From a virus: a stretch of DNA of 64,000 bases. Below the pieces are notes generated by a model. It made no database searches. It was not told the DNA's origin and was given only the letters and a program-made list of their open reading frames with translations. Of this stretch, positions 105 to 34,644 are shown one piece after another. Positions within the stretch are counted from its first letter, which is position 1. Every line of letters begins with the position of its first letter. Position numbers and translations under genes: made by a program. Where the stretch lies: positions 32,001 through 96,000 of the IMG/VR virus record IMGVR_UViG_3300022879_000002, one strand, 5' to 3'.

Positions 105-134
105 ATTTATATAATATAATTCTTTTATCTAATT

Positions 135-761
135 TTAAGAAACAATTTCACCACTTGAATAGTGATATATGTATTCTCGTACATGTTCTCTAAACATTGT
201 GACTGTGTAATGCACTGTCCTTGGACTAACTCCGATTAAAGGAGCTACTTCATTTGTTGTTGTCTCTCTGTACATTAATGGGATCAGAAATGGATGGTAT
301 TTATCGATAACCCATGTTTTTGCGTACTCAATTGCATTATGTAGGTATATATAATCTTTTTTATGTAGAACATCTTTATTTGATACATCCAGAATGTCGA
401 TTAGCTTACTTCCATCATTATCTAACACATTCGAATCTAGATATGAAAACGAATAACCTGAAGTATCTCTTTTCTTCCTTGTTGCTGCGTTTATGCTTTT
501 AATCACTTCGTTTCTCATTATTGAGTAACAGTATGTAGAAAATTTACAATTCTTTGATGTATTAAATGTCTGTGCTGCTCTAGAGAAAGCATAATTACAG
601 TCACTTTCTATATCTTCATTTGTAATTGCTTTTGAGTTCTTAAATAGTTTTTCAACTTCAAATACTAACCCTTTATTTCTTTTGTATAACTCATCAAACG
701 CTAACTCATTATTATCATTTCTATATAACTCTACTAATTCCTCATTTGTTAATTTATCCAT
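135..761 (-). CDS. Phage sigma-70 family RNA polymerase sigma factor
   Basis: Region 2-like segment AFDELYKRNKGLV...AAQTFNTSKNCKFSTYCYSIMRNEV and C-terminal HTH (VAPLIGVSPRTV). Confidence 0.8.
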   Translation of the reverse strand: MDKLTNEELVELYRNDNNELAFDELYKRNKGLVFEVEKLFKNSKAITNEDIESDCNYAFSRAAQTFNTSKNCKFSTYCYSIMRNEVIKSINAATRKKRDTSGYSFSYLDSNVLDNDGSKLIDILDVSNKDVLHKKDYIYLHNAIEYAKTWVIDKYHPFLIPLMYRETTTNEVAPLIGVSPRTVHYTVTMFREHVREYIYHYSSGEIVS

Positions 762-773
762 TCAATTAATCCT

Positions 774-1118
774 CTATGTATAGTATCTCTCTTTATTATT
801 TAGAAGCCTACCCTTGCTTGGTAATCTTACACTCAATATACCATTTATTTTCAACAAATCATCTTTCTCTTTATATGTATCGATAAATAAAACATTAAGT
901 ACTGGTGATATATATGTAATGGAACCTAATTCAGTTAATTTTTCAAGTACTCTATTATCTCTATATGTAACTATAAATTGATGCGTTGATTTTCTATTGT
1001 CATGCACCCCACTACTCCAATCTCTCGCCATCTGATTCACTCCTTTTATATAATGTTTAAACAAGTCTCTCTCGCAAGAGTACCTATTCAATATAAGCAC
1101 TCTTGCTATAAATGACAT
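774..1118 (-). CDS. Hypothetical protein, possibly subtilisin-propeptide/I9-inhibitor-like fold
   Basis: FIVTY...LGSITYISPVLNVLFIDT...GILSVR pattern resembles S8 prodomains; likely start MARDW. Confidence 0.35.
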   Translation of the reverse strand: MSFIARVLILNRYSCERDLFKHYIKGVNQMARDWSSGVHDNRKSTHQFIVTYRDNRVLEKLTELGSITYISPVLNVLFIDTYKEKDDLLKINGILSVRLPSKGRLLNNKERYYT

Positions 1119-1322
1119 TTATTTCTGCTTCCAGATACTCTCATTAATCGATTCAGCTTCATTTTCAATACTGTACCAATCATTAGCTAAGCCAAGATTA
1201 ATTTCTGCCATTTCCTGATACCCTATTTCCATCTGTTTGATCATTGCTTCTCTAAGCTTGTCCTGTATTCTGGAGTCTTCATTTAGCTGCTTTATTTCTT
1301 CAATCATTCCACCCATCTCCAT
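1119..1322 (-). CDS. Orphan MazE/NdoAI C-terminal mimic (YosL-like antitoxin)
   Basis: MEIGYQEMAEINLGLANDWYSIENEAE aligns by eye with B. subtilis NdoAI MRRGYMEMAKINLNISSEAHFAECEAE; no N-terminal RHH domain. Confidence 0.8.
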   Translation of the reverse strand: MEMGGMIEEIKQLNEDSRIQDKLREAMIKQMEIGYQEMAEINLGLANDWYSIENEAESINESIWKQK

Positions 1323-1429
1323 TCATTATTATGTATTTATTACATTAGTCACCGACAATTTGTTACATAACAACTTCACTACTGATCGAGAATGGATTTA
1401 CATTCCTTTATTTCTACTAGAATATGTAT

Positions 1430-1473
1430 ATCTTACTATATTAAGTTCAAATAATCAATAGTTTTATGTATTT
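1430..1473 (-). promoter_or_regulatory. sigmaA-type promoter with upstream AAATACATAA motif
   Basis: Minus strand AAATACATAA-5-TTGATT-17-TAAGAT upstream of the MazE-like gene. Confidence 0.65.
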
Positions 1474-1497
1474 ATTTATATAATATTCCACTATTAT

Positions 1498-3207: not shown

Positions 3208-4037
3208 ACAAATATCCCCTTCCAGTGTATGTATTGTTAAAATCCTACGTACTTCATTAATATCTGAAATGGACGATAATCATTAGATATGTAGCGCATA
3301 TTACTTCCTACTTGCCATCCATTCTTATTACATTCTACAATGTTTTCATGTAGCTCAATTTCATTACTCGCTTTAAGAATCTTCTTTCCGTTAAATTTAT
3401 TAAACTCCATATATTTGTCCTCTGTTATGTATTATATTTTTGATAATTACGGATTTTATTTGCTTTAAGTATCAAGTATGTATTACTAATTTTAAATAAT
3501 ATCTATATATTATGTATTTATTAATATTTAACTTCCTTCACTACTCCAACACTTACCATGTACTTCGCATAGCAAATTGAATCGCAATATAAATTGGCAT
3601 CATCTATAAAGTATTCATCTTCTCTGGTGAGTTCATTTGAACATTCCTTATTTGCACAACAACCAATTACATTAATATCGTGATATTTATTCAGCTTCTT
3701 CACCCTCTCCAACATTACTGTTTTCTTTTAGTGGATTATACTCTTTTTGTAGTTCGAAATATTTGAATCCTGCTCCTACTTTAAGGTCTACTAATCGTTT
3801 AATTAACCAATCACATTCAGCAGTCCATGTAATCATAGTGTCATCATTATTAAGCATTGATCCTTTATCATACTTGTTGATAATCGTATCAAATGTGTTT
3901 CTTAAATTTGCAATATCCTTATTCATTTTTATCTCACCTTTATGTATATGTATTTATTTAACTTAAACTTTTATTGATGTGATATTGGCTCTTGTACCAT
4001 ACCACATCATTTTCTCACAAAGACAACATAACCAGCT

Positions 4038-4487
4038 TCACCCCTTAATTTTCCTCAGTACTTCATAACTTGGATAGTTCATATTTAAGTATTTTTTCAT
4101 CTCATCTATGTTAGATGCATTACCTGTTTCAATTATAGATAAATCTTCTGCATTATATAAAAAAATATTATTATGCATTAAAATTAAACTATAATCACCT
4201 CTACCATCAATCCTAATCATGTCACTCATATCAAACGAATTATTTTCAGATAAATAGTATTTTACTTCTGGTGTACGTTTTAAAATTTCAACTACCTCAC
4301 CATCTTCAGTTAATTCAGCAATCTCAACAAAATGGAAATCTGAGCATTCTGTTATTAACTTATTACCTCTTACATTAGTTACTTGTAGTCCATTAGTAGG
4401 TATTAACCTATCATATAGTGCTAATAATTCTTCTGGGCTATTATCCTGAATTACTACTTCAGACTGAATCTTTGCTACTATTGTCAT
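4038..4487 (-). CDS. Hypothetical protein, first gene after an SOS-boxed promoter
   Basis: 149 aa ORF, RBS AGGGGAG, promoter at 4556-4584. Confidence 0.6.
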   Translation of the reverse strand: MTIVAKIQSEVVIQDNSPEELLALYDRLIPTNGLQVTNVRGNKLITECSDFHFVEIAELTEDGEVVEILKRTPEVKYYLSENNSFDMSDMIRIDGRGDYSLILMHNNIFLYNAEDLSIIETGNASNIDEMKKYLNMNYPSYEVLRKIKG

Positions 4488-4763: not shown

Positions 4764-5753
4764 CTATATTTTAACCTCAAAATGACCATATTCATCCTGC
4801 ATAAAATCAAAATCCATTGTTTCTCTGATTCGTTGTAATTGAGGATACTCTTTATTATTAGAGGTTATAGTACTCAAATTATATTTTTTAACTAACTCGT
4901 CTACAATGATCAAATCAAAAACTCTCTCTCCTTTTTGATTCATCCATTCATTTGCATAGTACATCATTCCACTAATTTCAATAGTTGTTGCAGTTACATT
5001 ACTATCTTCAAATGTATCCTTTATTCTCTGCATAATGATTGTACTAATCATAGAAGATGTTATACGAACATCATTGTCTTTACCTAGTCTATTTTTTCTA
5101 AAAATGTATTCACCATCAACTAATCGTGCCATTTTCCCACTAGGACTTTTTATTTCTGAAGTATTATAAGTTTTAATTAATAGATCATGAAGTTCTTTAG
5201 ATATTTCAATTTGTCTACTGTCTAAGTTTATTTCATCTGAAAGTACATTTAAAAAGTATTTATCATCTTTTGTAGTAATGTCATCCATTCTTAAATTTCT
5301 TATTTCAGAAAATGATGATCCAACAATTCCCTCAAACAATAGAAGTACAATAACCTTATCCCTGTTGTTATCCAGTAACTCAATTTTATTAAGAAGTTCT
5401 TCTCTTGTGTAATAATGTTTACCTGCGTTCCATACATAAGTAGAAACATACTCATCATTAATTACATCAACAATTGGATGAGTTGGTGAAGTACTATGCC
5501 CATTGTCTATAGCCCATGTAATATAGTTCTTAATAGTGTTGATAAATATAATTGCAGATCTTTTTGTTTGTCTTTTTGCTTGTCTAAATAACAAATCCAA
5601 CATGGAGTTATCCATATCATATAAATCTGTTTCATGTTTTCTTTCAAATGATTCAGTACGATTGAATATCGAGTAGTAAGTTTTCTTAGATGAATCAGAT
5701 AAATTCAATGTTTCAAGAAATGATTTCTTGTATTCCTCGTTATACATAATCAC
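4764..5753 (-). CDS. YopR/MrpR-like repressor with a catalytically degenerate tyrosine-recombinase fold
   Basis: SAM-like N-terminus, LLFEGIVGSSFSEIRNL lacks the catalytic Arg and no HxxR is present; third gene of a YopP/Q/R-like operon. Confidence 0.75.
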   Translation of the reverse strand: MIMYNEEYKKSFLETLNLSDSSKKTYYSIFNRTESFERKHETDLYDMDNSMLDLLFRQAKRQTKRSAIIFINTIKNYITWAIDNGHSTSPTHPIVDVINDEYVSTYVWNAGKHYYTREELLNKIELLDNNRDKVIVLLLFEGIVGSSFSEIRNLRMDDITTKDDKYFLNVLSDEINLDSRQIEISKELHDLLIKTYNTSEIKSPSGKMARLVDGEYIFRKNRLGKDNDVRITSSMISTIIMQRIKDTFEDSNVTATTIEISGMMYYANEWMNQKGERVFDLIIVDELVKKYNLSTITSNNKEYPQLQRIRETMDFDFMQDEYGHFEVKI

Positions 5754-7090
5754 TTCACGCCTTTCTTATACATATCTGTAAATAACTTAATCAATGCTTT
5801 TCGGTCTTTAGCATTTAATTTCATTTTCCCACTAACTATCTTGCTCAACTTAGATTCAGTATTATGGAATTCGTTTATATCTATAATATCTTCAATTTTC
5901 TCAAACGGTATATTATCTTCATTCATTAACTTGATTAAATATAGATGTCCTTCAAACACATCAGCATCAAAAAGTAGACTGTTATCACTGACATTATAGT
6001 TTTTATAAATTCCGAATAGGTACACTAGATATTCATTTATTGCTTTTGCAAGCTTTCTTGCGTCTAATATACTGTCTAATTTAAATATATTATTTATTTG
6101 CGTATTAATTATTTTATAAGTAGTAAAATCACTACCTTTTATTGATGACTTAGCATCACTAGCTGATGTTATTCTATTCTTTAGTTGTCCTTCTACTTTT
6201 AAAATATTCACAACTTCATTCGAATATGATTTATTATCTAGTTCTTCAACACGACTTCTTGATAACGGAGTATGTTTGTCTAGATCAACTTGATATCTTT
6301 TAACTTCCGCATCTGACTTATTTGAAATTGTTATTGGGAAAGATCCTTTTATATTAGAGTCTTTATTATAAGCACTATAATTACCTAGTAGTCTATGCAT
6401 ACCGTCTACAATATCTAAAACAGTACCTTCATTAATTTTTAGTGTATTGTTTTTATCATCATAAATAAGTTCTACACCTTCTAAAGCAGTCATCTGATGT
6501 GCATTCAAAGTGATAGTAGTTGGTCTTAGTACACCTTTTAAAATTTCATTTCTTATCTGTGTAATTTTACTTTGATAAATAATAGGTTTTTCAATTTCTA
6601 CACCAAAGCGAACAACTTTCTTCATACCTCGTTGCACATTAGCATTGTAATCCAGTTTACCTGATTTATATAATCTAGCTAATTCTTTTCTTGTAAGGGT
6701 TGCATTGTAATAACCGTCACCTAAATCAGTTACATTATGAATTGTCATTGGGAAATCTATAATATCTGTTGATGAAGAACCTACGAATTGGTATCCTCCA
6801 ATTTCTTTCTGTTCACGTTCAGTGAACCACTCATTCATCCATTCACTCTGGTTCATTCCTAATTTAACTACTAATTGCTGCCCAAATAGCGCAATCTCTT
6901 CAAAATCTAATTTACTTACATTATTAACATTATTAAATAAGGAATAAATCTTAGCACTTTCAATACCATGTTTCATTTTTAGGTGTTCAACAATTAAATC
7001 TACTTCATCTTTGTCTACATTAGATGAGAATGCATTAATTAAACTTTTAACTTCAATCTCTAATTGTTCATTATCTTTACCTAATTTCAT
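5750..7090 (-). CDS. YopQ-like DGQHR/DndB-domain protein
   Basis: IVDGMHRL motif, 446 aa, between two integrase-fold genes as in SPbeta. Confidence 0.75.
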   Translation of the reverse strand: MKLGKDNEQLEIEVKSLINAFSSNVDKDEVDLIVEHLKMKHGIESAKIYSLFNNVNNVSKLDFEEIALFGQQLVVKLGMNQSEWMNEWFTEREQKEIGGYQFVGSSSTDIIDFPMTIHNVTDLGDGYYNATLTRKELARLYKSGKLDYNANVQRGMKKVVRFGVEIEKPIIYQSKITQIRNEILKGVLRPTTITLNAHQMTALEGVELIYDDKNNTLKINEGTVLDIVDGMHRLLGNYSAYNKDSNIKGSFPITISNKSDAEVKRYQVDLDKHTPLSRSRVEELDNKSYSNEVVNILKVEGQLKNRITSASDAKSSIKGSDFTTYKIINTQINNIFKLDSILDARKLAKAINEYLVYLFGIYKNYNVSDNSLLFDADVFEGHLYLIKLMNEDNIPFEKIEDIIDINEFHNTESKLSKIVSGKMKLNAKDRKALIKLFTDMYKKGVK

Positions 7091-7153: not shown

Positions 7154-8206
7154 TTACATATTTTTTTGCTTATTTTTTATTTTATTATTTAAAAGTAGAA
7201 GCATTTCTGGTCGCATTTCGTTTAAAGCTTCTAAAAGCAACTCATGTGATACTGTTTTATAAGCATCATCTTCTGTATTCATTTTAGCTGAAATTATACC
7301 TGTTACATTTAAGTTAGTTAACCTTAAATATCTCATTGTTGTATTAACATTACTATGTCTAGCCTTTTTCATTGCAGTATCAATACAGTTGTTATTATTC
7401 AAGTAACACATAGTCACAGCTAATTTTTTAAAAGAGTGGAAAGAATATCTTACTCCAGTCTTATTTATAATTTCATTTCCTCTATCCATCATACCAGTTA
7501 ATTGTTTATATGTTAGAGTGAATAATTTTTGATCATTTCCTAAATCTTTTAATTGTAAAAGTTCTTCATACAATTCTTTATTTATTTTATCTATCCACTC
7601 TTTATTACCTTTTCCTTTATTACTACCATGTGATTTCATTATTACTCCATCTTCAACTACAGTAAAGTTACTCCACTTCAGCTCTAACAACTCTGTAGCT
7701 CTTAATGCTGTCTCAATTGCTAATTTGATTATTAATTGTTTTTCTAACCCTTGATCCTCTCCTTTAAAATAAGAAGAATATTCCATCGCTAAATCAAATG
7801 GTATCATTTCAATCTCTTCTCTTGTATCAGGAAAGAATTTAAGTAGTGATAGCTTATTTACATCATAAGAAATTATATCCCATGCAGCTAAAAACTCAAT
7901 GAACTTTTTTATTACCGAGATGTGTTTATTTATTGTTGAATTTTTGTGCTTCGGTTCATCTTCGTTATTTATTTCTTCATGTAATGTATTGAAGTATTCT
8001 TTTAATACATGTACAGTCATACCTTCAATATCAGAAACAGTTATAAATTTAAAGTCACTCTTATTTAATATATCTTTAAATAATTTATTTAAGCTGCTTT
8101 TATAACTCTTATAACTGTGAATTGAATTTGATTTGTATTCATTTAAGAAAGCTTCAATATGATCATAGATATAATTATCCATCTTAATTGTATTCAAAGC
8201 TACCAC
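7154..8206 (-). CDS. YopP-like tyrosine recombinase-family protein
   Basis: ALRATEL (Arg), HSFKK (HxxR with Lys), ARHSNVNTTMRY (His...Tyr). Confidence 0.85.
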   Translation of the reverse strand: MVALNTIKMDNYIYDHIEAFLNEYKSNSIHSYKSYKSSLNKLFKDILNKSDFKFITVSDIEGMTVHVLKEYFNTLHEEINNEDEPKHKNSTINKHISVIKKFIEFLAAWDIISYDVNKLSLLKFFPDTREEIEMIPFDLAMEYSSYFKGEDQGLEKQLIIKLAIETALRATELLELKWSNFTVVEDGVIMKSHGSNKGKGNKEWIDKINKELYEELLQLKDLGNDQKLFTLTYKQLTGMMDRGNEIINKTGVRYSFHSFKKLAVTMCYLNNNNCIDTAMKKARHSNVNTTMRYLRLTNLNVTGIISAKMNTEDDAYKTVSHELLLEALNEMRPEMLLLLNNKIKNKQKNM

Positions 8207-8238
8207 TACGACATCCCCCTTGTACTCTTATTATTACC

Positions 8239-8281
8239 AGTATAAAGGAAAACAAACAACAAGTAAAGTAATTATGTATTT
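8239..8281 (-). promoter_or_regulatory. Promoter of the repressor operon with AAATACATAA motif
   Basis: Minus strand AAATACATAA-4-TTTACT-17-TATACT. Confidence 0.65.
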
Positions 8282-10679
8282 ATTTTATTAATTACTTTTA
8301 TAAAATGTTCCTTTTATCTAACCTTTTAACATTAACTCAATCTCAATCAATTCCAATTGAACCTTTTTATTCTCGAGAAGAATGTATCAAACTTTGTCTC
8401 TAAAGCTTAAGTGTTTTCTTCTCTTCTTTAATAATATTTTGTATTTGTTATATTAAACATAGAATTAACTTTTGTAGTCCAAGAAGTTTAGTAAATCTTG
8501 TTGTGTGCGATTTGTAGGTATAACAACCGATATTGATTCTTTGATCAGGAAATTGATTGCTTCTAATTTTTCCTTATCTATGCCTATTAAGTGTACATTA
8601 CCATCAATCTCGATTAACAAACTCAATTGAGCGTCTTGAATGTCTATTCTCATTATTCCACCTTCTTGTTAATGGTTAATTATTATGTTACTAAAAATGA
8701 ATATTAATAAATCCAATTTTTATCATTCTACATACGTCCATATTTCTATATTTAAACAGCTTATATTTGTCCGATGAGATAAATGCTCCAAAGGTAATCC
8801 TAATTTCTTTATTATTCTTTGTCCATATGCTAATTTGTATGCTATTCATCCCCTCTCTATAATACTTACCTTTTATTTGATATTAGATCTTATTCATTCT
8901 AAACCAGTCGTGTGAATACCATTCTAATTTCCCCAAATCATTCTCTACTAACACTTCTCCGTAAGCTTGTTCTTTGACAATATATTTCTTATTTCGAGTT
9001 AAATTATGATTATTGTCATAACCGAAAACTTCATCTCCTGCTAAAACTTTCATAACATATACTCCATTTTCCTTTTTACATAAACTTGTCATACTACATC
9101 CTCCCAACGAGTTTTCATTATGTATTTAATAATATTTAGTTTTTATTAAACCTTAACATTACCTTTAAACCATTGAGACTCTTTAAATTCAACTTTGATT
9201 TCTTCAATAATTTCACTATGATTACAGGCAACTTCTTTCATTGTTAATCCATCAAAGTATGAAAGAAATTTAACCTTATCTTGATACGCTTTACAATTGT
9301 TTAGATTACCATTACATTTGCATTTGTCTTTATTAATAAAACCTTCTCCTTTTTCTTTCCCATAACAAAATTTTGAATTCACAACAAACTCAGCAAGCTT
9401 TTCAGTAATTCTAGTCATGTCAAATCCACTCCAATATTTATGTATTTGTGCAATAATTTAATGCTTCACTTTCAAACTCAAAATTTTGTTCTTTATCGCA
9501 CTTTGGGCATCTGATTCTATATTTTTTTATAAAATCTATATCTATTCCAGTATAGAATTCCTTATAAAACCTTCCTAAATAAGTCCATTTATGTATGCAT
9601 TCAGCTTGTCTTAATTCCTTTTCACGTTGAATTTCTCTTAATTCTCGTCTGTGTGAAAATTCACTTATCCATTTGAACACCGAACCATCTCCAGTTGTTT
9701 CAATTGATCCTTTAATCCAATATAATCATTTATTGCAAATAGTAAATTATCTAATTCTCTTTTAGAGTGTCGATTTGACAACTTACCATTTAAACGCACA
9801 CTCAGCTCATGCACTACCGTATACCTCTTTTCGTTAATAGATTCCTATTATTTAATCCTTTATACGTCTAATACGCCCCATTACATGTCCTTTGGAGGTC
9901 TTTATATAGCAATTCTCCCAACTATACTTACCTTCTCTATTTTTATATCTAATTGAATCCATCCCATATGACTGAGAAACAAACTCTATATACTTTCTTG
10001 GCTTAACGTCTAACACTAAATCTTTTCTTGAATTTAATTTCAATACTTTATAAATCGAACTGTTCTCAAATTCATCTACAACTTCTACATTGAACAAAGT
10101 AATCTTCCTTTCATTAATATATCTCTTTTATTTAAAAGTTACTTTTTCTCCTCGATTAATCATTTTAGTTAATAATAGTTCATCAATTAGTATCAAAACT
10201 CGTTTTAATTCCTCAGCATTAAACATACGTACATTTATTGATTTAACGGAAACATTTCCATCATAATCTTCCTCTTTCGTCAAAGGATTAAAATACAACA
10301 TTGGATTTGCTATACGCTTATAACCTACTGACCAGAGAGAGTTGTTATGTATCGTAATGCTTAGATCTAAATTTGCTATTTTATTACAGAATTCTAGATA
10401 TGTCATTTATAATTCTCCTTTATAATTTCTCCTCAGTTAAATTTCTAATAACTTCATATGTAATTATTTAATCAATTCAAAGGCATCATACTCTCCAGAA
10501 TAAACTCTATATGGTCGATTTAACTTGTTACTAAACAGTTCAACATATCCGCCCTCTCCATTATCTTCAGAAGAAACTAGATGTACAATTTCTCCATTTT
10601 CAAATGCCTTACCCCCAAAATAAATTTCATTTACATCTACAATTTTTGCTTTAATCATATAAAACTTCTCCCTTCTATC

Positions 10680-16353: not shown

Positions 16354-16392
16354 ACCCTCCTAGAATTTAGTAATGTTTGATTTCTTATCCTA

Positions 16393-23908: not shown

Positions 23909-23953
23909 ATATTACCACAACGACATTATAAATACAACTATAATTATGTATTT
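23909..23953 (-). promoter_or_regulatory. sigmaA promoter with AAATACATAA motif
   Basis: Minus strand AAATACATAA-6-TTGTAT-17-TAATAT. Confidence 0.7.
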
Positions 23954-24008
23954 ATTTAAATAAAAGACGTAAGAGTAAATTCTTACGCCTTAAATAGAAA
24001 TCAAAAAT

Positions 24009-24152: not shown

Positions 24153-24243
24153 ATAAACACCTCCAATAAAATAATATTATCACAAATTCATCAAATTAAA
24201 AATATTTCTCGTTTCTGTTCTTTATTTCCATAAAACGTGACTA

Positions 24244-25257
24244 TTATTGAATCATATTCATGTAACATGACTTAATTAACTCTGCTTTTTCTTCTGTATT
24301 AAATTCTGTAGACCCATCAATCAATTTTACAAAGTCCAAGTCTTTATTTTTACGATTTAATAGATATTCTTTTTGAATCTCTTTATTAAAATTCAATAAA
24401 TACAACTCAGAATATCTATTTTCTGAAATACCTTGCTTTAAACTTTTAGCAATATGCTCTTCCTTGAGGAGTTCAGGATACTTTTTGACAATTGATTTAT
24501 AGTTGATAGATCCATTTTTAGTAGGAGCTAATAGTTTCAATACTTTATTAGTAGAAATATCTTGATACTCAACTATTCTCATAAAATATGAAACATGTGA
24601 TGCTTCCTTATGTAATTTTTCTAATAATAAATTAAATAGTTCATCATCTTCTATCAATAACTTATTTTTAAGAAGCAATTGAAAAGGAATTTGCACATAA
24701 GACTCACTCTTAAATACTTTTTCTAAATCAAACTTATAATTACGATGCCTAGTAAAGTAGAAACCCATATTACCATCATAAATTTGACCGTTACATACGT
24801 ATAATTGTTGTGTGTTTTTTAGACATAATTTTAGTTGTTCTTTATTGTAGTGGCTAGGTAGAACTATGTCTTTTGCCCAAACTGGATAGTCTATATTAAA
24901 AATGTTGAATAGATTTATAATTTCATCTTTATTGTCAAAGTAACAACTGAGAATTTTAAACCACATTGGAATTTGTTCGCTGTCCATATCACTAAATGAA
25001 ATATCTCTAGGCTTATAATTTAAGTTACAAATAACTGCGCTCTCGATTGTGTCAATAGTTATGCTATTTGAGAATGATTTTATTGTTTCTAGTTGCTTCA
25101 AATTAGAAAGTAATTCATTATTTTCAGCTTTTAATTTTATATGATCTTCATTTAAATTTTCATAGTTCTTTTTCAAATTTTCATATTTATTGATATAACT
25201 CTCTATTTGAGCATTTACTTCCATTTGAATTGCATTTGTAATAATATCATTAACCAT
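24244..25257 (-). CDS. Hypothetical protein with N-terminal coiled coil
   Basis: 337 aa, RBS GGAGG, flanked on both sides by palindromic sites (24230, 25293). Confidence 0.7.
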   Translation of the reverse strand: MVNDIITNAIQMEVNAQIESYINKYENLKKNYENLNEDHIKLKAENNELLSNLKQLETIKSFSNSITIDTIESAVICNLNYKPRDISFSDMDSEQIPMWFKILSCYFDNKDEIINLFNIFNIDYPVWAKDIVLPSHYNKEQLKLCLKNTQQLYVCNGQIYDGNMGFYFTRHRNYKFDLEKVFKSESYVQIPFQLLLKNKLLIEDDELFNLLLEKLHKEASHVSYFMRIVEYQDISTNKVLKLLAPTKNGSINYKSIVKKYPELLKEEHIAKSLKQGISENRYSELYLLNFNKEIQKEYLLNRKNKDLDFVKLIDGSTEFNTEEKAELIKSCYMNMIQ

Positions 25258-26052
25258 TATTATTCCTCCGTTTTATGTATTTTCATCTTTTAATAATAGA
25301 ATCATTTTATCTGAAGCTTAAATTGACTGTGGTATATCTGACTGGTGTATTAGGTTGTATTGTTACTTCATTTATGTTGCTCACATAAACAAGTAGCTGT
25401 GTTTTAATATCATCATCATCAATTATATTTCTAATATAGTCTCCTTCTTTTACACAAATGCTATTATTTCTTAAAGTTTCTTCAGAAATCCCAGAAAAAT
25501 ATTTCATTATGTAATTCCTCCTTTTAATAGTTCCATAGTTTATGGTGTCTTTTGTTTAACTCTTCAATTTCACTTGTATCAATTGTCTTTCTGAACTCAT
25601 TTATCAATTCTTTAAGGTTATCTAATGCTTCAACTTCAGTCTTACCTAATCCTACTAGTTCAGGTGATAATCTAAAGTAAGCAATATGACCTCTTGTAGT
25701 TTCTTTAATGATTAATTTAGGTTTATCTGCATCTTCTAGTAACTGTTTAAGCATTTGTTCTGTCATCATTCGAATTTTCCTCCTTTTAATAAAACTCCTC
25801 TATTATTCTAAAATTTAGTCATATTTATTTTTCATTTGGTAATAATTTAAGTAATTTCTCATTTCTACATCATTATGGCTATCTTTGTGTAAGTGAGCAT
25901 TCACCAACCTGAACATAATTAAATCCCTAACTTCTTTCTTTTGTTGGAGTGTAGAAAAAGTAATCATATTAGCTATCTTGGTTGCAAAATCTTCATAATA
26001 ATTAAGATTGTTCATTATTATCTTCTCTCCTTTCATAAAATGAACATATTAA

Positions 26053-26280
26053 TTAATCTTCATTGTGTATAACATATTCTTCTTGGTGAAAGTCATACTC
26101 TTCTTCATCGTCATACTCAACCTCTATATCTTCAATCACTACATTCTGATCATCTACATCCCATTGTTTAACACCTTCAATATTAAATAGTTCATGTTCA
26201 ACAGCATCCAATGCGTTATTGGCGTTAATGTCTTCTTCGTTATAAATAACAGACATTGTAAATGTGATCTTCTTCATCAT
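26053..26280 (-). CDS. Highly acidic small protein
   Basis: 24 D/E and 3 K in 75 aa. Confidence 0.7.
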   Translation of the reverse strand: MMKKITFTMSVIYNEEDINANNALDAVEHELFNIEGVKQWDVDDQNVVIEDIEVEYDDEEEYDFHQEEYVIHNED

Positions 26281-26348
26281 ATGTATAACTTGCCCCTTTT
26301 TTCTTTTTAGTTATATGTATTTTTATAATATTCAGTTTTTATGTAAAT

Positions 26349-26834
26349 CTACTTTACCTCTCTAAACCATTGTGGATTCAACATGATATGTATAGCCTTC
26401 ATTAACATTGGTGTATCAAAATAACCAAAATGACATTGATTCTGTTCGATTCCTAATAAGATGGACATTCTTCGATAAGCCTCGCTACGTCCTAATAATT
26501 TCTTCTTCCACACAATATCAAATAGATCGTGACAAGCAGTTTTTAGTACTTTCATTTCTTTAGTTGCTAATACCCCTAATGGCTTACCATTATCATGACA
26601 GCCTACACTTGCTTGGCAGTTCCTACATAAATAGCATTTACCATTACCATATTCTTTCCCATAAATTTCTTTATTTGAAGTAAATACGACTACTTGATTA
26701 CAGTAAGGACATTGTTTTGGTGCTTCCAATATAATTACTCCTCCCTTTCGATAATATCTATCTTTTATGTAATTTTTAAAATAGATTCCAATTGATTTAA
26801 GTAGCGTTAAACTATTTCCTGACACTTTATACAT
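26349..26834 (-). CDS. DUF3268-type zinc-finger protein
   Basis: CPYC...YLCRNCQASVGCH...PLGVLA...ACHDLFD; likely start near LEAPKQ. Confidence 0.8.
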   Translation of the reverse strand: MYKVSGNSLTLLKSIGIYFKNYIKDRYYRKGGVIILEAPKQCPYCNQVVVFTSNKEIYGKEYGNGKCYLCRNCQASVGCHDNGKPLGVLATKEMKVLKTACHDLFDIVWKKKLLGRSEAYRRMSILLGIEQNQCHFGYFDTPMLMKAIHIMLNPQWFREVK

Positions 26835-26952
26835 CTTAATCTTAAAACGCTCTGTAAATTATTTAATCATTGTTATAAGAAACATCTAACTTTGATGTTT
26901 TGTTTGGTTGAATTGATACCCAAAAAGCCATACTTTTACTTAATCGTAATTC

Positions 26953-27035
26953 ATGCAAGGTTTACGGACAGAAATGCAACCTTTAGAGACTCAAATGCAA
27001 ACTTCAAAGGACAAAAATGCAAGCTAACCTTGCAT
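26953..27035 (+). repeat. Phased iteron-like direct repeats
   Basis: ATGCAA cores at 26953, 26974, 26995, 27017 (spacing 21, 21, 22) plus inverted TTGCAT at 27030. Confidence 0.7.
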
Positions 27036-27164
27036 AAATTACGGTGTATAAAGAACAATATACATAATATACATAAGATACAATAAGAACCAGTATATAC
27101 GATTTCATTTTCTATCGAAAAGTGAGAATCGTAGTCCACCTTTTTCTCTCCCTTTACCCTTAGA

Positions 27165-27791
27165 TTAAATATTAGATAAATTAACTCTATAGTGGTTATT
27201 AAATTTATCGAATTTATTCTCATCAAATGGATTATCAAAATGTACTTGATGTTTAGTTATACTTATTAACTTTTCCTTTTTTAGTTTGTTATTGTATCTG
27301 GTTAACGTTTTATCGCTTATATTTAAATCGTTTATGATCGTTTCATATGCAGGAAAACAGTAATCCTTCATGATATCGTTTCTATTTATATATGACTCAT
27401 AATAAAACACCAGTCTATATCCTAATAAACCAATCGTTTCAATATGAAGGTTTAAATTTAAGGGGATTTGCGTGAACCAATCATCACGATATGGATGTAA
27501 CAATTCTAACTTTAATTTCTTTCTAATAGGAAAATCACTTATTTCGTTTTTAATCATTTTTTGCTCATATAAATTTTTAAAACAATTCTTCAATGTCCTA
27601 TTATCGTTAATGCCCAGTGCATTTTTAATTGAAACATGATCAACTTCCAATACGGTATTATTTTTATCGTGCATTCTGAATTTCTTGTATAGTAAATATA
27701 CGTATACTGCAAAAGACTTCTCATCAATATTGAATCCTATATTTCTTACAATTTCTGTTGGCACTTGTAACCATACCTTAGTTTCTCTCAT
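27165..27791 (-). CDS. Winged-helix (HTH_36/replication-initiator-like) protein
   Basis: Two wHTH-like halves; CFPAYETIINDLNISDKTLTRYNNKLKKEKLI. Confidence 0.6.
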   Translation of the reverse strand: MRETKVWLQVPTEIVRNIGFNIDEKSFAVYVYLLYKKFRMHDKNNTVLEVDHVSIKNALGINDNRTLKNCFKNLYEQKMIKNEISDFPIRKKLKLELLHPYRDDWFTQIPLNLNLHIETIGLLGYRLVFYYESYINRNDIMKDYCFPAYETIINDLNISDKTLTRYNNKLKKEKLISITKHQVHFDNPFDENKFDKFNNHYRVNLSNI

Positions 27792-27880
27792 TATAATTCA
27801 ACCTTTATGTATATTATTAACCAAATCCCTCACTAACAAAATTATTCCCTTTGATATATTTTAATAAAATTAAGAAATAG

Positions 27881-28240
27881 TTACTCCTTTAGATGTTTTA
27901 TGATCTCCCAAATATCTCTTAAACGTTTAACTGACTCTTCATTTGAAACAATCAATTCTTTATAAAATTCTTCTAATTCAGGATTGTTATTAGATACTTG
28001 AAAAGAATTAGCACCTTTTTCTACTTGGGAAAGATGAGTAGGTTCAGTTGTGTTACCAAGTAAATAATCAACTGATACATTGAAAAAACTCGCCATCTCT
28101 TTTAGTAATTTAAAATCAGGTTCTCTTTTTCCTGTTTCATATTTGGATAATGCCGAATAAGTAATGCTCAATGAATTAGCTAAATGCTCTCGACTAATAT
28201 CTTCTTGTTCTCTTAGCTTTTTTAATTGTTTATGAAACAA
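27881..28240 (-). CDS. XRE family HTH regulator
   Basis: LKKLREQEDISREHLANSLSITYSALSKYETGKREP; C-terminus resembles that of 16484..16873. Confidence 0.9.
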   Translation of the reverse strand: MFHKQLKKLREQEDISREHLANSLSITYSALSKYETGKREPDFKLLKEMASFFNVSVDYLLGNTTEPTHLSQVEKGANSFQVSNNNPELEEFYKELIVSNEESVKRLRDIWEIIKHLKE

Positions 28241-28547
28241 ATTAATCCCCTCTTTCGATAATAGATGTGTTTTATGTAGTAACTCATTCTTTATCCATCA
28301 AAATACCATTTACAAAATGCACATCTTCTTTATCATCAATAAGATTATCTAAAGGAACACTACGCATATAATCCATATAATGTTCTATAGCACAATCTTG
28401 ATTACAAAAATATAACCCTAATTCTTGACTGTGCTCAATTTGAGTTTTATCTGTAAGCACCCTATTACATGTACTGGAAGAACATCTAACCTTTCCATCC
28501 ATACTATTCATCCTGATCACCTCTATTTAATAATAGTTCTATTTCAT

Positions 28548-29261
28548 TTAAAGCTTAATTGTATATTCTTTAGGAATACTAAACGATGTGAATTCATGAT
28601 CTAAGTTATAATGATTTATTATTAGATGTAAAATATCGCTAAATGCCTCCAATGATATATAAACAGCTTCAGAATTATCGTATTCCTCATTCTTTCTTAT
28701 GATCTCTGTCATATTAATAAATTTTGATATTAAGTCATTACTATGAACCTCTCCGCTGTATTTCATATAGTAATAACCATATATGTCTTCATTATACTTT
28801 TTAAATAATTTAGATATAGAATTTACTCCATCTACTCCGTACCATTTATATTTATCTTTAGAAGTAAATTTCTTATTCTTGTATTTTAACTTTATTTCTT
28901 TGATTTCATCAGGTGAGTAAATTGGTATGACATCTGGATATAGATTACTTGTCTTTTCATATATGTCTACTTTTAATTTAAAGTTTGACAACATGAAATC
29001 TCTAGCTCTATTTAAAGAATCTTTTTCCAAAATAAACTTTAGATAAATTAATTTTTCTAATATATTTCTGCATAAGCTATCAGTACCATGATATTTCTTA
29101 TTATTAACTAACAGAAACAATGAGTCTAATTCATAAAAAGCATTACTTGACAGAAACACTAAAGATTGGTCTAAGTCTGATAATTTTTTATTTTCTAACG
29201 CAAGCTCATATATTTTATAGTGAACTGCTCTTAAATCTTCTATTATTATTTTGATATCCAC
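28548..29261 (-). CDS. DUF5677-like (HEPN-related) protein
   Basis: LCRNILEKLIYLKFI and Y...YSGEVHS motifs. Confidence 0.6.
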   Translation of the reverse strand: MDIKIIIEDLRAVHYKIYELALENKKLSDLDQSLVFLSSNAFYELDSLFLLVNNKKYHGTDSLCRNILEKLIYLKFILEKDSLNRARDFMLSNFKLKVDIYEKTSNLYPDVIPIYSPDEIKEIKLKYKNKKFTSKDKYKWYGVDGVNSISKLFKKYNEDIYGYYYMKYSGEVHSNDLISKFINMTEIIRKNEEYDNSEAVYISLEAFSDILHLIINHYNLDHEFTSFSIPKEYTIKL

Positions 29262-29669
29262 TAAACTACCATCTTTCTTTTTTTTAATAATAACTTCCTT
29301 TTATATAAAAATTCTATCCTAATTTAGTATTGCTTTATATGCATATAAATTGTATTTTCCACAATCTTGTTGTAATACATCGTCTGATACAGGATGAATC
29401 TGTCTATACTCAATATGTTCAAAAAAGTCATCCTTCTTTAAGTCTAATCTCATAAATATGGATTTTAATGCAAGTTGTCTTGATTGTGTAGAATTAAAAT
29501 AACTGGATGCTTTTATATCCTTTTCAATTTTCCTTAGTAAATTTTTAATATCTTGATGAGTAAACCCTAAGATTTCTGCATTCGGTGCTACTCTTGGATA
29601 ATCATTATATAGTTTGCTCTCTGAATTTTTCATTACATATCCCCTATATCTTAAATTTTTTTATTGAAT

Positions 29670-30229: not shown

Positions 30230-30307
30230 ATGTACATTACTCCATTCATTATAATAAAAGACTTCTAATATCTAATTATCATGCAATATGTAGTAACTAA
30301 GCACTAA

Positions 30308-32287
30308 CTAAGATACTAGTTCTGTAAGAAGCTCATCGATGTCATCATGATGGTATGGAGCTACGTCTTTTAGCTTCACTAGGAAATTTTCCATTTTCGA
30401 TGGATCAACACAAGTAAATTCAACTTCTTTTTCTTCTGTAACTACATTTAATTCTACTCTGTTTGGCTTTTGAACTATATCAAACGCGAGTAAAAATTGA
30501 GCTTCATTTAATGTAGTGGAAATCACCTGTAGTGCTTCTTTTATTTGAACATTTGCTTTCATAATTATATTCCTCCTAAGTTTTATAAAATGCTGATATT
30601 ACTTAATGTTCATTTATTCCTCAAAATTATCCCAGTAAACACCATTAATATAAGTTCCAACGTTATAACCAAGGTAATCTTCGACTAGTCTTCCAAAAGA
30701 ATGATTAACATTGAATAAGTCCATTATTGCCTTTTGTTTATCGTTCAGTTTAAGATTTATTGACATGGTGACACCTAGTTCTCCTATCGTTGCATCTTCT
30801 TCTTTCATTTCTGCTAAGACTTCTTCCTCACTTTTAAAATCATCAATGATATAGTAAATATCAATACTGTCAATCTTTAAGAAAGAGTTTTCAACTTCAT
30901 TTCCAATTGTATCACCTACGATTTTCTCTAATAGTTCATATTGTGTTGTATTCTTTATTTGTATTTGTAAATGAGTTAGTAAGTATTTTAAGACGTAATT
31001 CATAATCGAATTGAAATCTTTTTCTACATGTCCTTCTTCTATCATAAATACGATTTCTTGCGTTATATCACTGTGGAATTCATTTAGTATGTATTTGTGC
31101 ATTGGATGTGTAATATCTTCTAATACATTTTCCCAAATAACCATGTTTTCTTCATAAGTTTTCATCATATATTCCTTCTTTCTTTTTATATTCCATAATC
31201 TCCAGATTCTACAATAGTTTGTTCGCCATGCCATTCTTTTAAAAATTCTTGATATGCTATAAAGTTTTTGATATCAAATTCAAAATTTTCAATATCTGGA
31301 TATAACTTTCGTATTTCTATTATTTCATTCCAAATTAAATCAGTTAATTTAGATACTAATCTATGCTTAATCTTAATAGAAAACATATCTTTTAATAATT
31401 TCAAGGATACCCTATCTAGATAAAGAAAAGAATCTAGTGATCGTTCGATATAATATTTGTTAGTTGAAGCTGTCACATCCATCTTAATCACCCTTTATCT
31501 ATTATTTTAATTTTACTTGATGCTCAAATGGTATACAACTTCCAACTACAAATATTAATTTGTACTTATAATTAGTTGCTGCCTCCATTTAATCTTAACC
31601 TGATATTACCATACACTCAAAATTAAAGTCAAACACATTTATGTATTTTTATATTTAATTTTAAAGTAGTTAAAGTAAATCAAAAATTCTATACGATTGA
31701 AATTTCAAAATCATACAATTAATAAATCAAGATTTTGTCTATCTCTATATTCGCATTAAAAATTCTACATATTCTAATTTTCTAAATGTAAAATTCTACG
31801 ATTTTGATTTTTTAATTCTACAGTTTTGATTTTTCAAATACTGCTATCTTGCATGTCTAACTAAGAATTGGTTCACATCGATCAAACAGCTATTGTAATT
31901 TAATAAAGAATATTATTTATATATTTAGTTAGCTAACAACTTCATATATCCCTTTTGCAGCTCTTTCATTTGATCCTTATAGTAATCAACTTCTTCTTTT
32001 GTATAGCTTGGCGTAAATAACGCAGGAACATCAACTTCTATATCTGAGTTATTTACTGAGATTTCATAACGAGCAAAATCATATTTATCCACTAATTCGA
32101 ACCTATATTCATTATTTATATTGTTAATGCATTCTTCTCTAACTTCTTCACTCATTTGTAACAGTGAATTGTACACTTCATATTTATTGTAACTAACTCC
32201 ATTATTACAATCCGCAGCATTATTAACAACTAATTTTAATTGATTCATCATTTTTATATCCCCTTTATTTTTTAAGTATTTATTCAT
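30308..32287 (-). other. Four hypothetical genes heading the leftward arm
   Basis: ORFs 30308..30562, 30614..31234, 31186..31491, 31925..32287. Confidence 0.6.
31603..31648 (-). promoter_or_regulatory. sigmaA promoter with AAATACATAA motif
   Basis: Minus strand AAATACATAA-6-TTGACT-18-TAATAT. Confidence 0.65.
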
Positions 32288-32821
32288 ATAAATTATATCA
32301 CAACAACTTAACTTGTTTCTTTGTAAGATTAGCTCATTTCAATATCAATATTCCAATTTTCAATAAATAATTACATTATTATGTATTTTATATTTTAGTT
32401 AACATAAGAATAATCGAGTTAAAATAGCGTTAACCATACTCTAAGTAGATGATTGGAACTTTGATTAAAATGTATCTTACTTGTAAGCTATAAGTAAATT
32501 ATACATAAGATACTAGTAAGATACAATAGTTTTTTAAATTTATTTTTGTATATTTTGGAAGTATTAATTATTCTTGTCTACTCCCTTCTTATTTATTCAC
32601 ATGTATTTTAAATAGTTCAATTTTACTTTTGATACTTCCCCTCTAAATTAGTTACAAAAGGATTTAGGGTGATCTTGCAATGTGATCTCTTGAGAAGTTT
32701 AAAAAGACCAATCATTTTTAGCAGCTAACTAATTCGAATAAATTGCTTTTAATAGGAAGAAACTAAATTTCATAAGAAAATAATCATTGTGGAATTAGAT
32801 AGCCTTATATTTTATTTATAT

Positions 32822-32866
32822 AAATACATAAATAGTGTTGACTAAGATATTTTTAAGTGATAAGAT
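32822..32866 (+). promoter_or_regulatory. First rightward sigmaA promoter with AAATACATAA motif
   Basis: AAATACATAA-6-TTGACT-17-TAAGAT. Confidence 0.75.
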
Positions 32867-32918
32867 AAACTCAAGTTAAACAAATAAATACATAGACAAA
32901 CTTTAGGAGGAATTAAAA

Positions 32919-33376
32919 ATGAAACTACAAAATAAAATCAGCGCTCTATCTAATATGACAGCTAAGGAGTTACAAGTAGAAACAAACAAAGAAGGTTTAG
33001 CATGGTACAACCGTGAGAAAAACGTAAAATGCGTAAAGGCGAGATTCTTACAATGTTAACTGAGTACTATACAATCTTATTTGGACAGGAACAAAACTTA
33101 GAATTAGAAATCGAAAATTCGACAACTGCTCAATTGGTCAAGTATTTTAAAGAACTAGCTTCCAATGCAGTAACTACAGCTAAAGAAGATTACGATCAAG
33201 CAACGCAACAATTAAGTACTGTTAAAGAACTACTATCACACGCATTTGTAAAGCTGCATGACAAGCTTACTGATAAGAAAAACAAGCTACTAGCTCGAAA
33301 TTGGGCTTTAACAATAAATAACATTAAAGGTATTGTGACTACCGCAGAACGTAAAATTAACGCTGTAACTGCCTAA
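32919..33376 (+). pseudogene. Frameshifted gene with Rho-N-terminal-like domain
   Basis: AGGAGG RBS precedes ATG 32919; frame closes at 33059; adding one A to the A5 at 33018-33022 joins it to 33029..33376 (LSNMTAKEL...KMRKGEILTML). Confidence 0.6.
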
Positions 33377-33448
33377 ATAAAAACAGTATTTTATGAGAAA
33401 ATAATTACTGTACGAAATGTTTTGGATTATAATATTAATAAAATCTAA

Positions 33449-33901
33449 GTGTTGAGAGGAAGTAATGTAATGGAATATCCAGTTTTATTTTCATTTGAGT
33501 TTTTATTAAAAAATAATTTATTTATAAATGTGGAAACACATAGTGAAAGAAAAGTGATGAGCTATAACTACAATAACAATACAATTAAAATAAATTTAGA
33601 AATGCTAGAAGAAATAAAAGATGGTTATTTATACTATTTAAGTGAGGATGAAATAATAACTGTTATGCTATGTCATGAAATTGGACACTATTTAGAATTT
33701 AAGAATAACAAAGAACTACCAAGCCAATTTCAATACTATATGTTTGATAGCACTAGAGAAGAGTATATAGAATTTATTCTCGAGCGTGAGAAAGTTGCTT
33801 GGGAAAATGGAAAGCAGTATGTTCCAAAAGATTTATTAGAAGAGTATGACAGAGTAAATGAACGCAACATTAATGATTATATTTCATATTTCAACAGGTA
33901 A
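33449..33901 (+). CDS. HExxH zinc metallopeptidase (ImmA/IrrE-like)
   Basis: LCHEIGH and downstream EREKVAW. Confidence 0.7.
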   Translation: MLRGSNVMEYPVLFSFEFLLKNNLFINVETHSERKVMSYNYNNNTIKINLEMLEEIKDGYLYYLSEDEIITVMLCHEIGHYLEFKNNKELPSQFQYYMFDSTREEYIEFILEREKVAWENGKQYVPKDLLEEYDRVNERNINDYISYFNR

Positions 33902-34644
33902 CTAATTTAAATAAAAAGTAAATATTATCAAAAGATTGGAGTGCGTATGAAATGCATCATACTGATGACGTGGCAATAGATAGATTTGCGAAAGGTAATT
34001 TATTTGATTTTAATTTGGATGGATTCAACTACTATACAACTAAAACTGGTATACGGAAAAAGAAACACATGAATGAAAAAGCTGTCACTATAACTGAAAA
34101 CGAATATATGTTAGCTTGGGAAAGATATGACTTCATTTTTAATTAATGATTCTGGAAGGACTATAACATGACGTATTCATTTAGAAAAGAATTAGACGAC
34201 CAAGAAATGAGCGATACTATAAATGAATTATCAAATAAATTTGTAGGAATAATTTTTCAGGATGATAAATATCACAAATTCATCATGAACGGTATTTCAA
34301 TAATCACTAAAGGAAAAACTTATTATTGGTCACTTACTTATTCACCAATGAGCGACAATGGATTAGTTCATACTTTAGTAAAATACACTAGGCCAATTGA
34401 CGATTTTATCAATGGCAAATTTAAGTATGAAAAATTATAATAAATAATATAAATAAGTCCCCTACCCTATTCATAAGTGAGGTGAAAAGATCTTGATGCA
34501 TAAATGTATAGCTGCAATTGACAATTATTTCTGGTGTCCAGAAGATGATCCATATGACAAGGTATCCTTTTATAAAGTTACTTTATCTGTCAACGCTATA
34601 TCTATTATAATGCTCCTAACTGTTCTTACGAAAATTAATTAAAT

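Follow-up and report, generated by a model that had tools for sequence, protein, structure and literature searches.

The accessory arm of an SPbeta-like phage is punctuated by copies of one short inverted repeat, an arrangement that raises a question: what are these elements for? We addressed it in a 64,000-nucleotide stretch (hereafter, the window) that comprises bases 32001-96000 of IMG/VR record IMGVR_UViG_3300022879_000002, which is 121,875 bp long, has terminal repeats and contains ~30% G+C. The phage carries a YopP-like/YopQ-like/MrpR(YopR)-like triad in the same order as SPbeta; homologs of its recombinase are named in Lysinibacillus genomes, and we describe it as a Lysinibacillus SPbeta-like phage. 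The original prediction, made from the letters of the window, held that 18-bp ATAAWA-N6-TWTTAT sites delimit integron-like gene cassettes served by a phage tyrosine recombinase, with a network of dimeric-repressor operators as the alternative. We reach a different reading, to which we assign a probability of roughly 0.45: the sites are fixed, in-register crossover joints, probably used by the phage’s predicted YopP-type, Xer-like recombinase.

We scanned for ATAAWA-N6-TWTTAT against a background of 100 dinucleotide shuffles of the window. The window holds 29 exact sites, compared with a shuffle mean of 0.80 and a maximum of 4; 0/100 shuffles reached 29. The enrichment that had been claimed over an AT-matched background is therefore real, but the count that accompanied it, 22 exact copies, was too low: 28 of the 29 sites lie inside 111-33928, the range originally described, and the remaining one is at 34793. 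The whole genome has 46 exact sites, 43 at genome positions 4.4-66.8 kb and 3 at 109-114 kb; in a scan of the whole record, none fell in the structural module. One-mismatch copies are in excess as well (24 intergenic copies, where local shuffles predict 5.7), and the genome total comes to about 65 real sites, exact and one-mismatch together.

The placement of these sites is as striking as their number. Although the genome is 87% coding, 43 of the 46 exact sites are intergenic, which bears out the earlier claim that they lie at gene junctions. In the direction of transcription, the upstream stop codon and the site are -4 to +14 nt apart in 36/46 cases, and in 11 of the 46 this codon occupies arm positions 2-4; the median gap from a site to the next start codon is ~30 nt. 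Seven genes had been said to end within an arm, and all do: those ending at 13374, 13995, 15323, 24244 and 25307 end in exact sites, and those at 10128 and 23681 in the one-mismatch sites 10114 and 23667. Genes run on the minus strand from window position 1 to 32.3 kb and on the plus strand from ~33 kb into the structural module; because of this direction, the attribution of these stop codons to the “upstream” gene is true when read on the minus strand. The pairs of consecutive sites that had been named as bracketing single genes are also correct.

The geometry is strict. A spacing of N6 yields the 46 sites, and every other spacing from 0 to 12 yields 0-3. The full element is a 26-bp dyad, TTAA-ATAAWA-N6-TWTTAT-TTAA, with 10-bp arms that include TT at -3/-2 and AA at +21/+22. 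This is the construction of a dif/lox-type core site, in which inverted arms of ~10-13 bp surround an overlap of 6-8 bp.

Do related phages carry the same sites? A megablast search of the phage collection with 20 kb of the window gave no match. One relative, G001, was found by searching viral contigs with the MrpR-like protein, and G003-G006 were found with the exact 18-mer of site 24230. A YopQ-like protein search of bacterial genome contigs found no relative, and a generic 26-bp dyad scan of viral contigs gave only single chance matches among those listed. In metagenome contigs the site-24230 18-mer hit 34 stretches, of which 2-3 were true relatives and the rest chance matches in unrelated DNA. 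The five relatives have 31-39 exact sites each.

The six genomes were put in one orientation and their sites were chained by the 6-bp centre, giving 15 genome pairs. About 60 centres are identical and in the same order across the related genomes. Of the identical-centre pairs, 595 follow the collinear chain, another 16 depart from it and 16 are inverted matches; the latter two figures are no more than chance expects. Thus, the order and orientation of the addresses formed by the centres are unchanged in all 15 comparisons. Assembly chimeras were rejected as the cause, as the pattern also holds, over 57 collinear sites, between G003 and G005, which we take from the format of their record names to be proviruses from isolate genomes.

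The sites of the window, to which no strand is assigned, are listed below. They are junction sites unless described otherwise; n/5 is the number of relatives with the same centre on the collinear chain.

111-128: exact, centre TAATTC; 2/5
1480-1497: exact, centre TTCCAC; 4/5
2546-2563: exact, centre GAGTGG; 3/5
3496-3513: exact, centre TCTATA; 2/5
4157-4174: exact match inside gene 4038-4487, all 18 bases coding; in 1 relative only, in a homologous gene; probably a chance match and not a joint
8300-8317: exact, centre TGTTCC; 5/5
8669-8686: 2 mismatches, centre GTTAAT; 2/5
8859-8876: exact, centre CTTACC; 4/5; both flanks unrelated in G001
9129-9146: exact, centre TTTAGT; 5/5
9834-9851: 1 mismatch, centre GATTCC; 4/5; left flank joined to next address in G003
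10114-10131: 1 mismatch, centre TATCTC; 5/5; stop of gene 10128-10406 in arm
11485-11502: exact, centre CATCTG; 5/5
11853-11870: exact, centre GACGGC; 4/5
12693-12710: 1 mismatch, centre TGCGAC; 2/5
13360-13377: exact, centre TGAAAT; 4/5; stop of gene 13374-13580 in arm
13593-13610: 1 mismatch, centre GTAATT; 2/5
13981-13998: exact, centre GCGTTC; 4/5; stop codon in arm
14939-14956: 1 mismatch, centre TCGTTA; 2/5
15309-15326: exact, centre TCAACT; 4/5; stop codon in arm
15700-15717: exact, centre TCGAAT; 3/5
15871-15888: 2 mismatches, centre TACGAA; 2/5
16904-16921: exact, centre GGGAAA; 5/5; G001 homology begins exactly at site
19413-19430: exact, centre GATAAC; 5/5
19816-19833: 1 mismatch, centre TTCTCA; 5/5; one-sided homology boundary in G001
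20187-20204: exact, centre GGCTCG; 5/5; G001 homology ends at site
20857-20874: exact, centre CTTTGT; 3/5
21905-21922: exact, centre ATCCAA; 4/5
22189-22206: inside an open reading frame (our gene call), 1 mismatch, centre AATCTA; 2/5
22486-22503: 1 mismatch, centre ACTCTC; 4/5
22854-22871: 1 mismatch, centre GTTTAG; 3/5
23299-23316: 1 mismatch, centre GCATGA; 5/5
23667-23684: 1 mismatch, centre TATTGG; 4/5; stop of gene 23681-23878 in arm
24230-24247: exact, centre CGTGAC; 5/5; stop codon in arm; 18-mer used to find relatives
25293-25310: exact, centre GAATCA; 5/5; stop codon in arm
25789-25806: exact, centre CTCCTC; 5/5
26035-26052: 1 mismatch, centre TGAACA; 2/5
26325-26342: exact, centre TTCAGT; 5/5
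26751-26768: exact, centre TCTATC; 4/5
28258-28275: exact, centre GATGTG; 5/5
28530-28547: 1 mismatch, centre GTTCTA; 5/5
29287-29304: exact, centre ACTTCC; 5/5
30254-30271: 1 mismatch, centre GACTTC; 5/5
30585-30602: 1 mismatch, centre TGCTGA; 4/5
33377-33394: exact, centre ACAGTA, in the plus-strand gene arm; 2/5
33911-33928: exact, centre AGTAAA; 3/5
34793-34810: exact, centre TATGCT, outside the range originally described; 4/5
46930-46947: isolated conserved site in the late region, 1 mismatch, centre CGGTTA; 4/5
60354-60371: isolated site beside the split yomM-like gene, 1 mismatch, centre TAAGAA; 2/5

What lies between the conserved centres is mostly not conserved. Among 690 orthologous site pairs, 531 have flanks that are unrelated on both sides beyond at most 30 bp, 133 share one flank and 26 share both. 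In base-level alignments, the sites appear as 22-26 bp islands amid unrelated sequence, or homology stops at the site. For the intervals between adjacent orthologous sites, 55-60% lack a tblastx match and differ in length, ~30% are partly shared and 5-15% are fully homologous. A search that made no use of the motif, for exact collinear matches of at least 14 bp outside long alignments, returned 138 isolated matches at sites compared with 59 elsewhere; the latter were mostly low-complexity sequence or a second motif that is described below.

The same islands are found in soil. The phage is present, at 84-99% of sampled words (window 8200-28199), in metagenome and metatranscriptome assemblies of public runs X1-X4, which come from several studies. 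Variant soil contigs match it only over junction islands of 20-31 nt, and 13 of the 15 joints listed start and end at a site. These variant contigs occur beside the phage in the same assemblies; therefore, several relatives co-occur in the same soils. Two soil joints that appeared out of register, 9856>26741 and 26774>10677, have sides of 28-34 nt on sites with similar centres and were treated as cross-matches.

Where within the site does the change from shared to unshared sequence occur? In pairs sharing one flank (n=128), identity keeps to the homologous level as far as arm position 5, and from position 14 onward it equals the unrelated-flank baseline. The variable arm positions beside the shared flank are 91% identical, as compared to 92% in the class with both flanks shared; for the far arm the figure is 79%, as compared to 81% in the class with neither flank shared. 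The near and far arms differ with a Fisher p of 2e-4 over all pairs, which are not independent, and of 0.03 for G000 pairs only. Because the arm identities track the flank classes in this way, each arm evidently travels with its flank, the switch falling in the central 8 bp; and because the switch falls between the arms, it appears that relatives recombine within the site, each joint with its counterpart. The original prediction had proposed that breakpoints of gain, loss and replacement be mapped in related genomes, and in the five relatives they do map to the sites, between the two arms. Marking the boundaries of insertions, deletions and replacements between relatives is also the property that characterizes the promoter early stem-loop (PeSL) elements of other phages, and the junction sites have it. 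At the level of pattern, we conclude with high confidence that the sites are position-matched crossover joints.

A separate feature of the arms concerns the W positions (18-mer positions 5 and 14), which are coupled: 37 of the 46 sites combine one ATAAAA arm with one ATAATA arm. This mixed-arm bias recurs in all five relatives, in which orthologous sites often differ in W state; SPbeta, unlike this phage, has ATAAAA in both arms. Relative to the genes, the asymmetry occurs in both orientations (22 vs. 15). Possibilities for the coupling are an arm asymmetry that orders strand exchange and a heterodimer.

Which protein might act on such sites? The triad shared with SPbeta includes a candidate and lies between the first sites of the window:

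4764-5753, minus strand: MrpR/YopR-like protein with a tyrosine-recombinase fold, of a repressor family; Pfam MrpR_N_CB and MrpR_C_cat (PF22822 and PF22823); PDB 8bj6, 8a0a
5750-7090, minus strand: YopQ-like protein; 29% identity to SPbeta YopQ (E=3e-27); weak DndB match
7154-8206, minus strand: YopP-like Xer-type tyrosine recombinase, the candidate enzyme; PF00589; E=1e-13 to SPbeta YopP

Profile matches of the YopP-like protein include XerA (E=1.5e-8), a XerC-like protein, XerH and, more weakly, IntI4 (E=1.8e-5, over the C-terminal 74 positions only); its closest relatives of solved structure are XerA, XerC-like and XerH. No homolog compared, down to 22% identity, deviates at R169, K199, H257, H284 or the nucleophile Y293; the set includes SPbeta YopP and proteins of Mammaliicoccus, Geobacillus and Psychrobacillus phages. 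The expectation that a phage tyrosine recombinase would be available was thus sound for 7154-8206, which keeps the catalytic set R-K-H-(K/R)-H-Y. Excision of SPbeta relies on the serine recombinase SprA (PMC10516654). The end of the present record (genome 121124-121636, outside the window) encodes a 170-aa open reading frame with a large serine recombinase zinc-ribbon domain, probably a SprA-like integrase cut by the record ends. Because SprA performs the excision of SPbeta and this genome has such a fragment at its end, YopP seems free of an assigned job. The YopP-like protein is a candidate for the cognate enzyme of the junction sites.

The second enzyme that had been put forward, at 59264-60302 on the plus strand, proved to be a frameshifted, yomM-like tyrosine recombinase gene in the tail module. 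Its split open reading frames overlap: the first, 59264-60049, encodes SAM-like N-terminal domains and the second, 59997-60302, the last part of the catalytic domain. The position of this gene is comparable to that of yomM in SPbeta, and the one-mismatch site 60354 comes after it.

We propose the following mechanism. The arms would be bound by the phage’s YopP-type Xer-like tyrosine recombinase, and the 6-bp centre would serve as the overlap region, its identity allowing strand exchange only with the matching joint of a relative that co-infects or is resident. Accessory genes would in this way be reassorted at gene boundaries while gene order is left unscrambled, and in rarer events a gene would be gained or lost along with one site. 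Unlike the sites, their placement, the order of their centres, the breakpoints and the catalytic set, all of which were identified, the binding protein and the site-specificity of exchange are things that we infer. In its fullest form, the proposal is of a gene-by-gene reassortment system with ~65 heterospecific core sites for the phage’s own YopP and with centres as addresses; we advance this form tentatively, as its odds are somewhat below even.

Observations on both the pattern and the enzyme weigh against this proposal. Breakpoints also occur, almost as frequently, at junctions that lack a site: at least one alignment block ends at 36/59 junctions with a site and at 26/57 without one, so the sites are not the sole boundaries. 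The identity of the centres is partly circular, because orthologs were chained by centre. When only the flanks were used as anchors, 60 of 78 comparisons had a site at the expected place, and among those 60 the centre was identical in 38, differed by one base in 7 and differed by at least two in 15. Centre identity in this flank-anchored set is 83%, and that of the flanks 87%; by our own calculation, exclusion by hand of sites differing by at least 3 bases, which were taken to represent another slot, brings the centre to ~95%. With orthologs defined in this way, the centre has only a moderate edge in conservation over the flank. Duplicate or palindromic centres within a genome were sought and none was found, but about 0.4-1 were expected, and the shortfall is not statistically significant. 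Finally, 8 of 11 homologous genes that have sites called on both sides in both genomes sit in different slots, a sample too small to use. As for the enzyme, the position of the second catalytic arginine, 260, is K in this phage and in SPbeta (R in the homologs of Geobacillus E3 and of Perkons). A YopP homolog is present in each of the five distant phages tested, and because of this the co-occurrence of YopP with the array lacks a negative control; a loose 16-bp pattern is found in the distant phages at 1.4-4.4 times its control. The role of YopP in binding or cutting the sites is itself a proposal. The yopP gene of SPbeta belongs to the yopM-yopR operon; its transcription in a lysogen was seen in a microarray data set, whereas two RNA-seq data sets did not show it (bioRxiv 10.1101/2021.11.22.469490), and a regulatory role for YopP is therefore possible.

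Could the exchanges be carried out by general recombination instead? In this explanation, which we think unlikely but which deserves the most attention among the rivals, the dyads are bound by a phage protein (as a roadblock, a stoperator-like silencer, or a nucleoid or replication factor), and general recombination or template switching uses the islands as short homologies. The recombination could be that of the host or the phage (RecA or a Sak4-type annealase), replication forks might stall at the bound protein, and the mosaic boundaries would be a by-product. The comparative pattern does not separate site-specific from short-homology recombination, as 26-bp identical islands would give the same picture; this, too, counts against our proposal. 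General recombination would also stay in register, because out-of-register pairs share at most ~10 contiguous bases, compared with 26. In addition, breakpoints are almost as frequent where a junction has no site, and the sites are confined to the early and accessory arms, in many intergenic copies as in stoperator networks; such confinement is expected of a silencing network. Twenty-six base pairs is, on the other hand, at the lower limit for efficient general recombination. A regulatory role, moreover, gives no reason for the centre of a slot to persist when both neighbours are replaced, unless exchange needs it, and the strict 10-6-10 geometry, together with the conserved catalytic set in YopP, fits an enzyme-driven process. 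In favour of the rival, repressor sites are known at many intergenic positions across a phage genome in the case of the stoperators (PMC9283540), and SPbeta yopQ and yopR, unlike yopP, are lysogen-active in all three data sets (bioRxiv 10.1101/2021.11.22.469490).

The cases that depart from strict register bear on the integron-like reading, in which units of a gene and a site excise as circles and reinsert elsewhere. Several discordant cases are flanks joined to the neighbouring address, i.e. one gene and one site gained or lost, and such units are indeed present in some genomes and absent from others. Homologous genes keep their 3' address more often than their 5' address (42/50 vs. 44/72), and the homologous pairs in different slots and the IntI4 profile match could be read in the same direction. 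Most variation, however, consists of replacement between conserved addresses, with address order and orientation constant throughout the comparisons; the sites, of 18-26 bp, fold negligibly, and we identified no attI/Pc-type platform. Accordingly, the gain and loss of a gene plus a site stands from the original prediction, whereas reordering (595 collinear pairs vs. 16 off the chain) and attC-like folding do not, and mobile cassettes of this kind are a very improbable explanation. Because discordant, neighbour-joined and slot-changed cases exist, in-register exchange is the main but not the only pattern.

Two side observations concern these units. Apart from slot changes, which alter both addresses, there is no gene pair with a changed 3' address. 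Examples of the apparent gain or loss of a gene and its downstream site are 9834/10114 in comparison with G003 and genome 11629/11866 in comparison with G001; the events are few and non-independent.

The MrpR-like protein offers a further alternative, namely that the sites are the operators of this repressor, without a role in recombination. The MrpR-family gene is located 2.5 kb from the first site cluster, and in SPbeta MrpR, a protein with the fold of a tyrosine recombinase but reportedly without its recombinase function, binds the SPbeta repeated element, SPBRE (PMC10516654); the junction sites would then be its equivalent. SPbeta itself argues otherwise. In SPBc2 (NC_001884), the SPBRE core (AATATGTATA) is found at all ten published MrpR peak genes from chromatin affinity precipitation sequencing (PMC10516654). 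The junction motif is present separately, in 14 exact copies and 31 with one mismatch, and only 1 of the 14 lies within 400 bp of one of these peak genes. In its SPbeta form, ATAAAA-N6-TTTTA[T/A], it occurs in 26 copies at the strict N6 spacing and in 0-2 at any other; several SPbeta centres are shared with SPbetaL1. The SPBRE sequence differs from that of the sites, the sites lie apart from sigma-A promoter-like sequences, and operators would leave the conserved centres between unrelated genes unexplained. In so far as the network of dimeric-repressor operators suggested at the outset was to be MrpR’s, the peak genes speak against it, and we regard this alternative as improbable.

The phage has a possible better counterpart of SPBRE. 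The second motif (AAATACATAA) is oriented with the genes, has 59 intergenic copies genome-wide, including the structural module, and is closer to the SPBRE core than the junction site is. It may be a real MrpR-type operator or a phage-specific promoter element. In the form (T)AAATAAATACATAA it is always co-oriented with the genes, for example at 1465, 8273, 9119, 13345, 25274, 32824, 34832, 36917, 40908 and 64371; it frequently lies downstream of a junction site, at a distance of 3-21 nt, or immediately before a sigma-A-like -35 box or a ribosome-binding site. The core is similar to that of SPBRE in SPbeta (TATGTAT) and to the XerD arm of dif.

Are the sites simply signals for gene expression? 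They might be terminators, sites of RNA processing, or promoters read by a sigma factor or RNA polymerase of the phage, in which case the link with mosaicism would follow from their intergenic position. Sites lie ~30 nt upstream of start codons, a protein with only sigma-70 region 2 is encoded at 135-761 (minus strand), and the PeSLs of T4-type phages join promoters and terminators at gene-swap boundaries (PMC2839356). The data lend this idea very little likelihood. The RNA fold energy of the sites is ~-0.5 kcal/mol, with an all A-U hairpin. Terminator-like sites show no excess (4 vs. 3.4 expected), nor do sigma-A promoter-like ones (114 vs. 134.6 in shuffles), the best of which are not on the junction sites. 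The element is a dyad whose sole asymmetry, that of W, occurs in both orientations, and a signal would not need a distinct conserved centre at each junction.

Other functions were considered and set aside without a dedicated test. The bipartite form with an N6 gap fits a Type I restriction target, but this would leave the placement at junctions and the conserved centres unexplained. Homing-endonuclease sites and cruciforms, the latter having arms of 6 bp with A-T pairs only, were rejected as well. Among the neighbouring genes of the accessory arm are the following:

17020-17604, plus strand: Excalibur calcium-binding domain
17653-18558, minus strand: ATP-dependent DNA ligase
28548-29261, minus strand: DUF5677 protein

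Why phage mosaic boundaries fall at gene borders is an old question, to which the “linker” idea of modular evolution belongs. In this phage, what stands at the borders is a defined, symmetric element of strict spacing, whose position-specific centre survives replacement of both neighbouring genes. If our proposal is true, programmed recombination would reassort accessory genes, many of them probably for defence or counter-defence, in register between relatives; YopP, a conserved gene, would gain a role; and genome engineering would gain dozens of natural recombination sites that exclude one another. Even if general recombination makes the exchanges, the sites mark exchange units precisely, which is of use in comparisons within this large phage group. 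The idea is directly testable in SPbeta, a model phage that carries the same motif. The literature that was searched does not describe this element for SPbeta-like phages.

How do the sites compare with known systems? Integron attC sites, like those described here, come right after the stop codons of small genes, form units of a gene and its 3' site that are (here apparently) gained and lost, and have a tyrosine recombinase, here a candidate one, to serve them. They are, however, imperfect palindromes of ~57-141 bp that fold as single strands. The phage sites have no folded single-strand attC, their units are not reordered, and no attI/Pc platform was identified; the addresses stay and the genes change. 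Closer in form are the dif sites of the single-recombinase systems XerA, XerH and XerS, which likewise have inverted arms of ~10-11 bp around a 6-bp centre and bring together identical sites on two DNAs. A replicon has one dif site, which resolves dimers, whereas this phage has ~65 sites with varied centres at gene junctions, where the activity is predicted; the arms TTAAATAAWA also appear unlike Firmicute dif arms.

The proposed logic has its nearest match in a laboratory tool. Heterospecific lox and FRT sites have common arms and different spacers and recombine only with a same-spacer partner, so that a segment is swapped without deletion or inversion. Because the phage centres are unique and conserved, the array may be a natural counterpart of heterospecific lox sites and recombinase-mediated cassette exchange; the dependence on centre identity is in our case suggested by genome comparison. 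Heterospecific sites are an engineered method, and we know of no natural example.

Stoperators are oriented with transcription, and to our knowledge no position-specific conserved core has been reported for them. Those of Cluster A mycobacteriophages resemble the junction sites in being dozens of copies of one short, intergenic site in a temperate phage, but they are asymmetric and bound by a monomeric repressor, whereas the site here is a dyad (PMC9283540). The PeSL cassettes of T4-type phages combine a sigma-70 promoter with terminator stem-loops, recombine as repeats and yield mini-circles (PMC2839356, PMC4122927); the dyads are neither promoter nor terminator and exchange in register. SPBRE (PMC10516654) is likewise a repeated element of the same phage group with a binder of the tyrosine-recombinase fold, yet it differs in sequence and has ~10 copies at promoters, and SPbeta has both elements. 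In the pdif modules of Acinetobacter plasmids, as PMC6449649 describes them, many dif-like sites flank accessory-gene modules and are linked to exchange between replicons. Those modules use the host Xer proteins and are discrete units in varying contexts; here, the candidate enzyme is phage-encoded, the order is fixed and the centre is specific to the position. None of the Xer/dif, pdif, PeSL and stoperator systems joins a fixed order to position-specific centres, the combination that distinguishes the junction sites of this phage.

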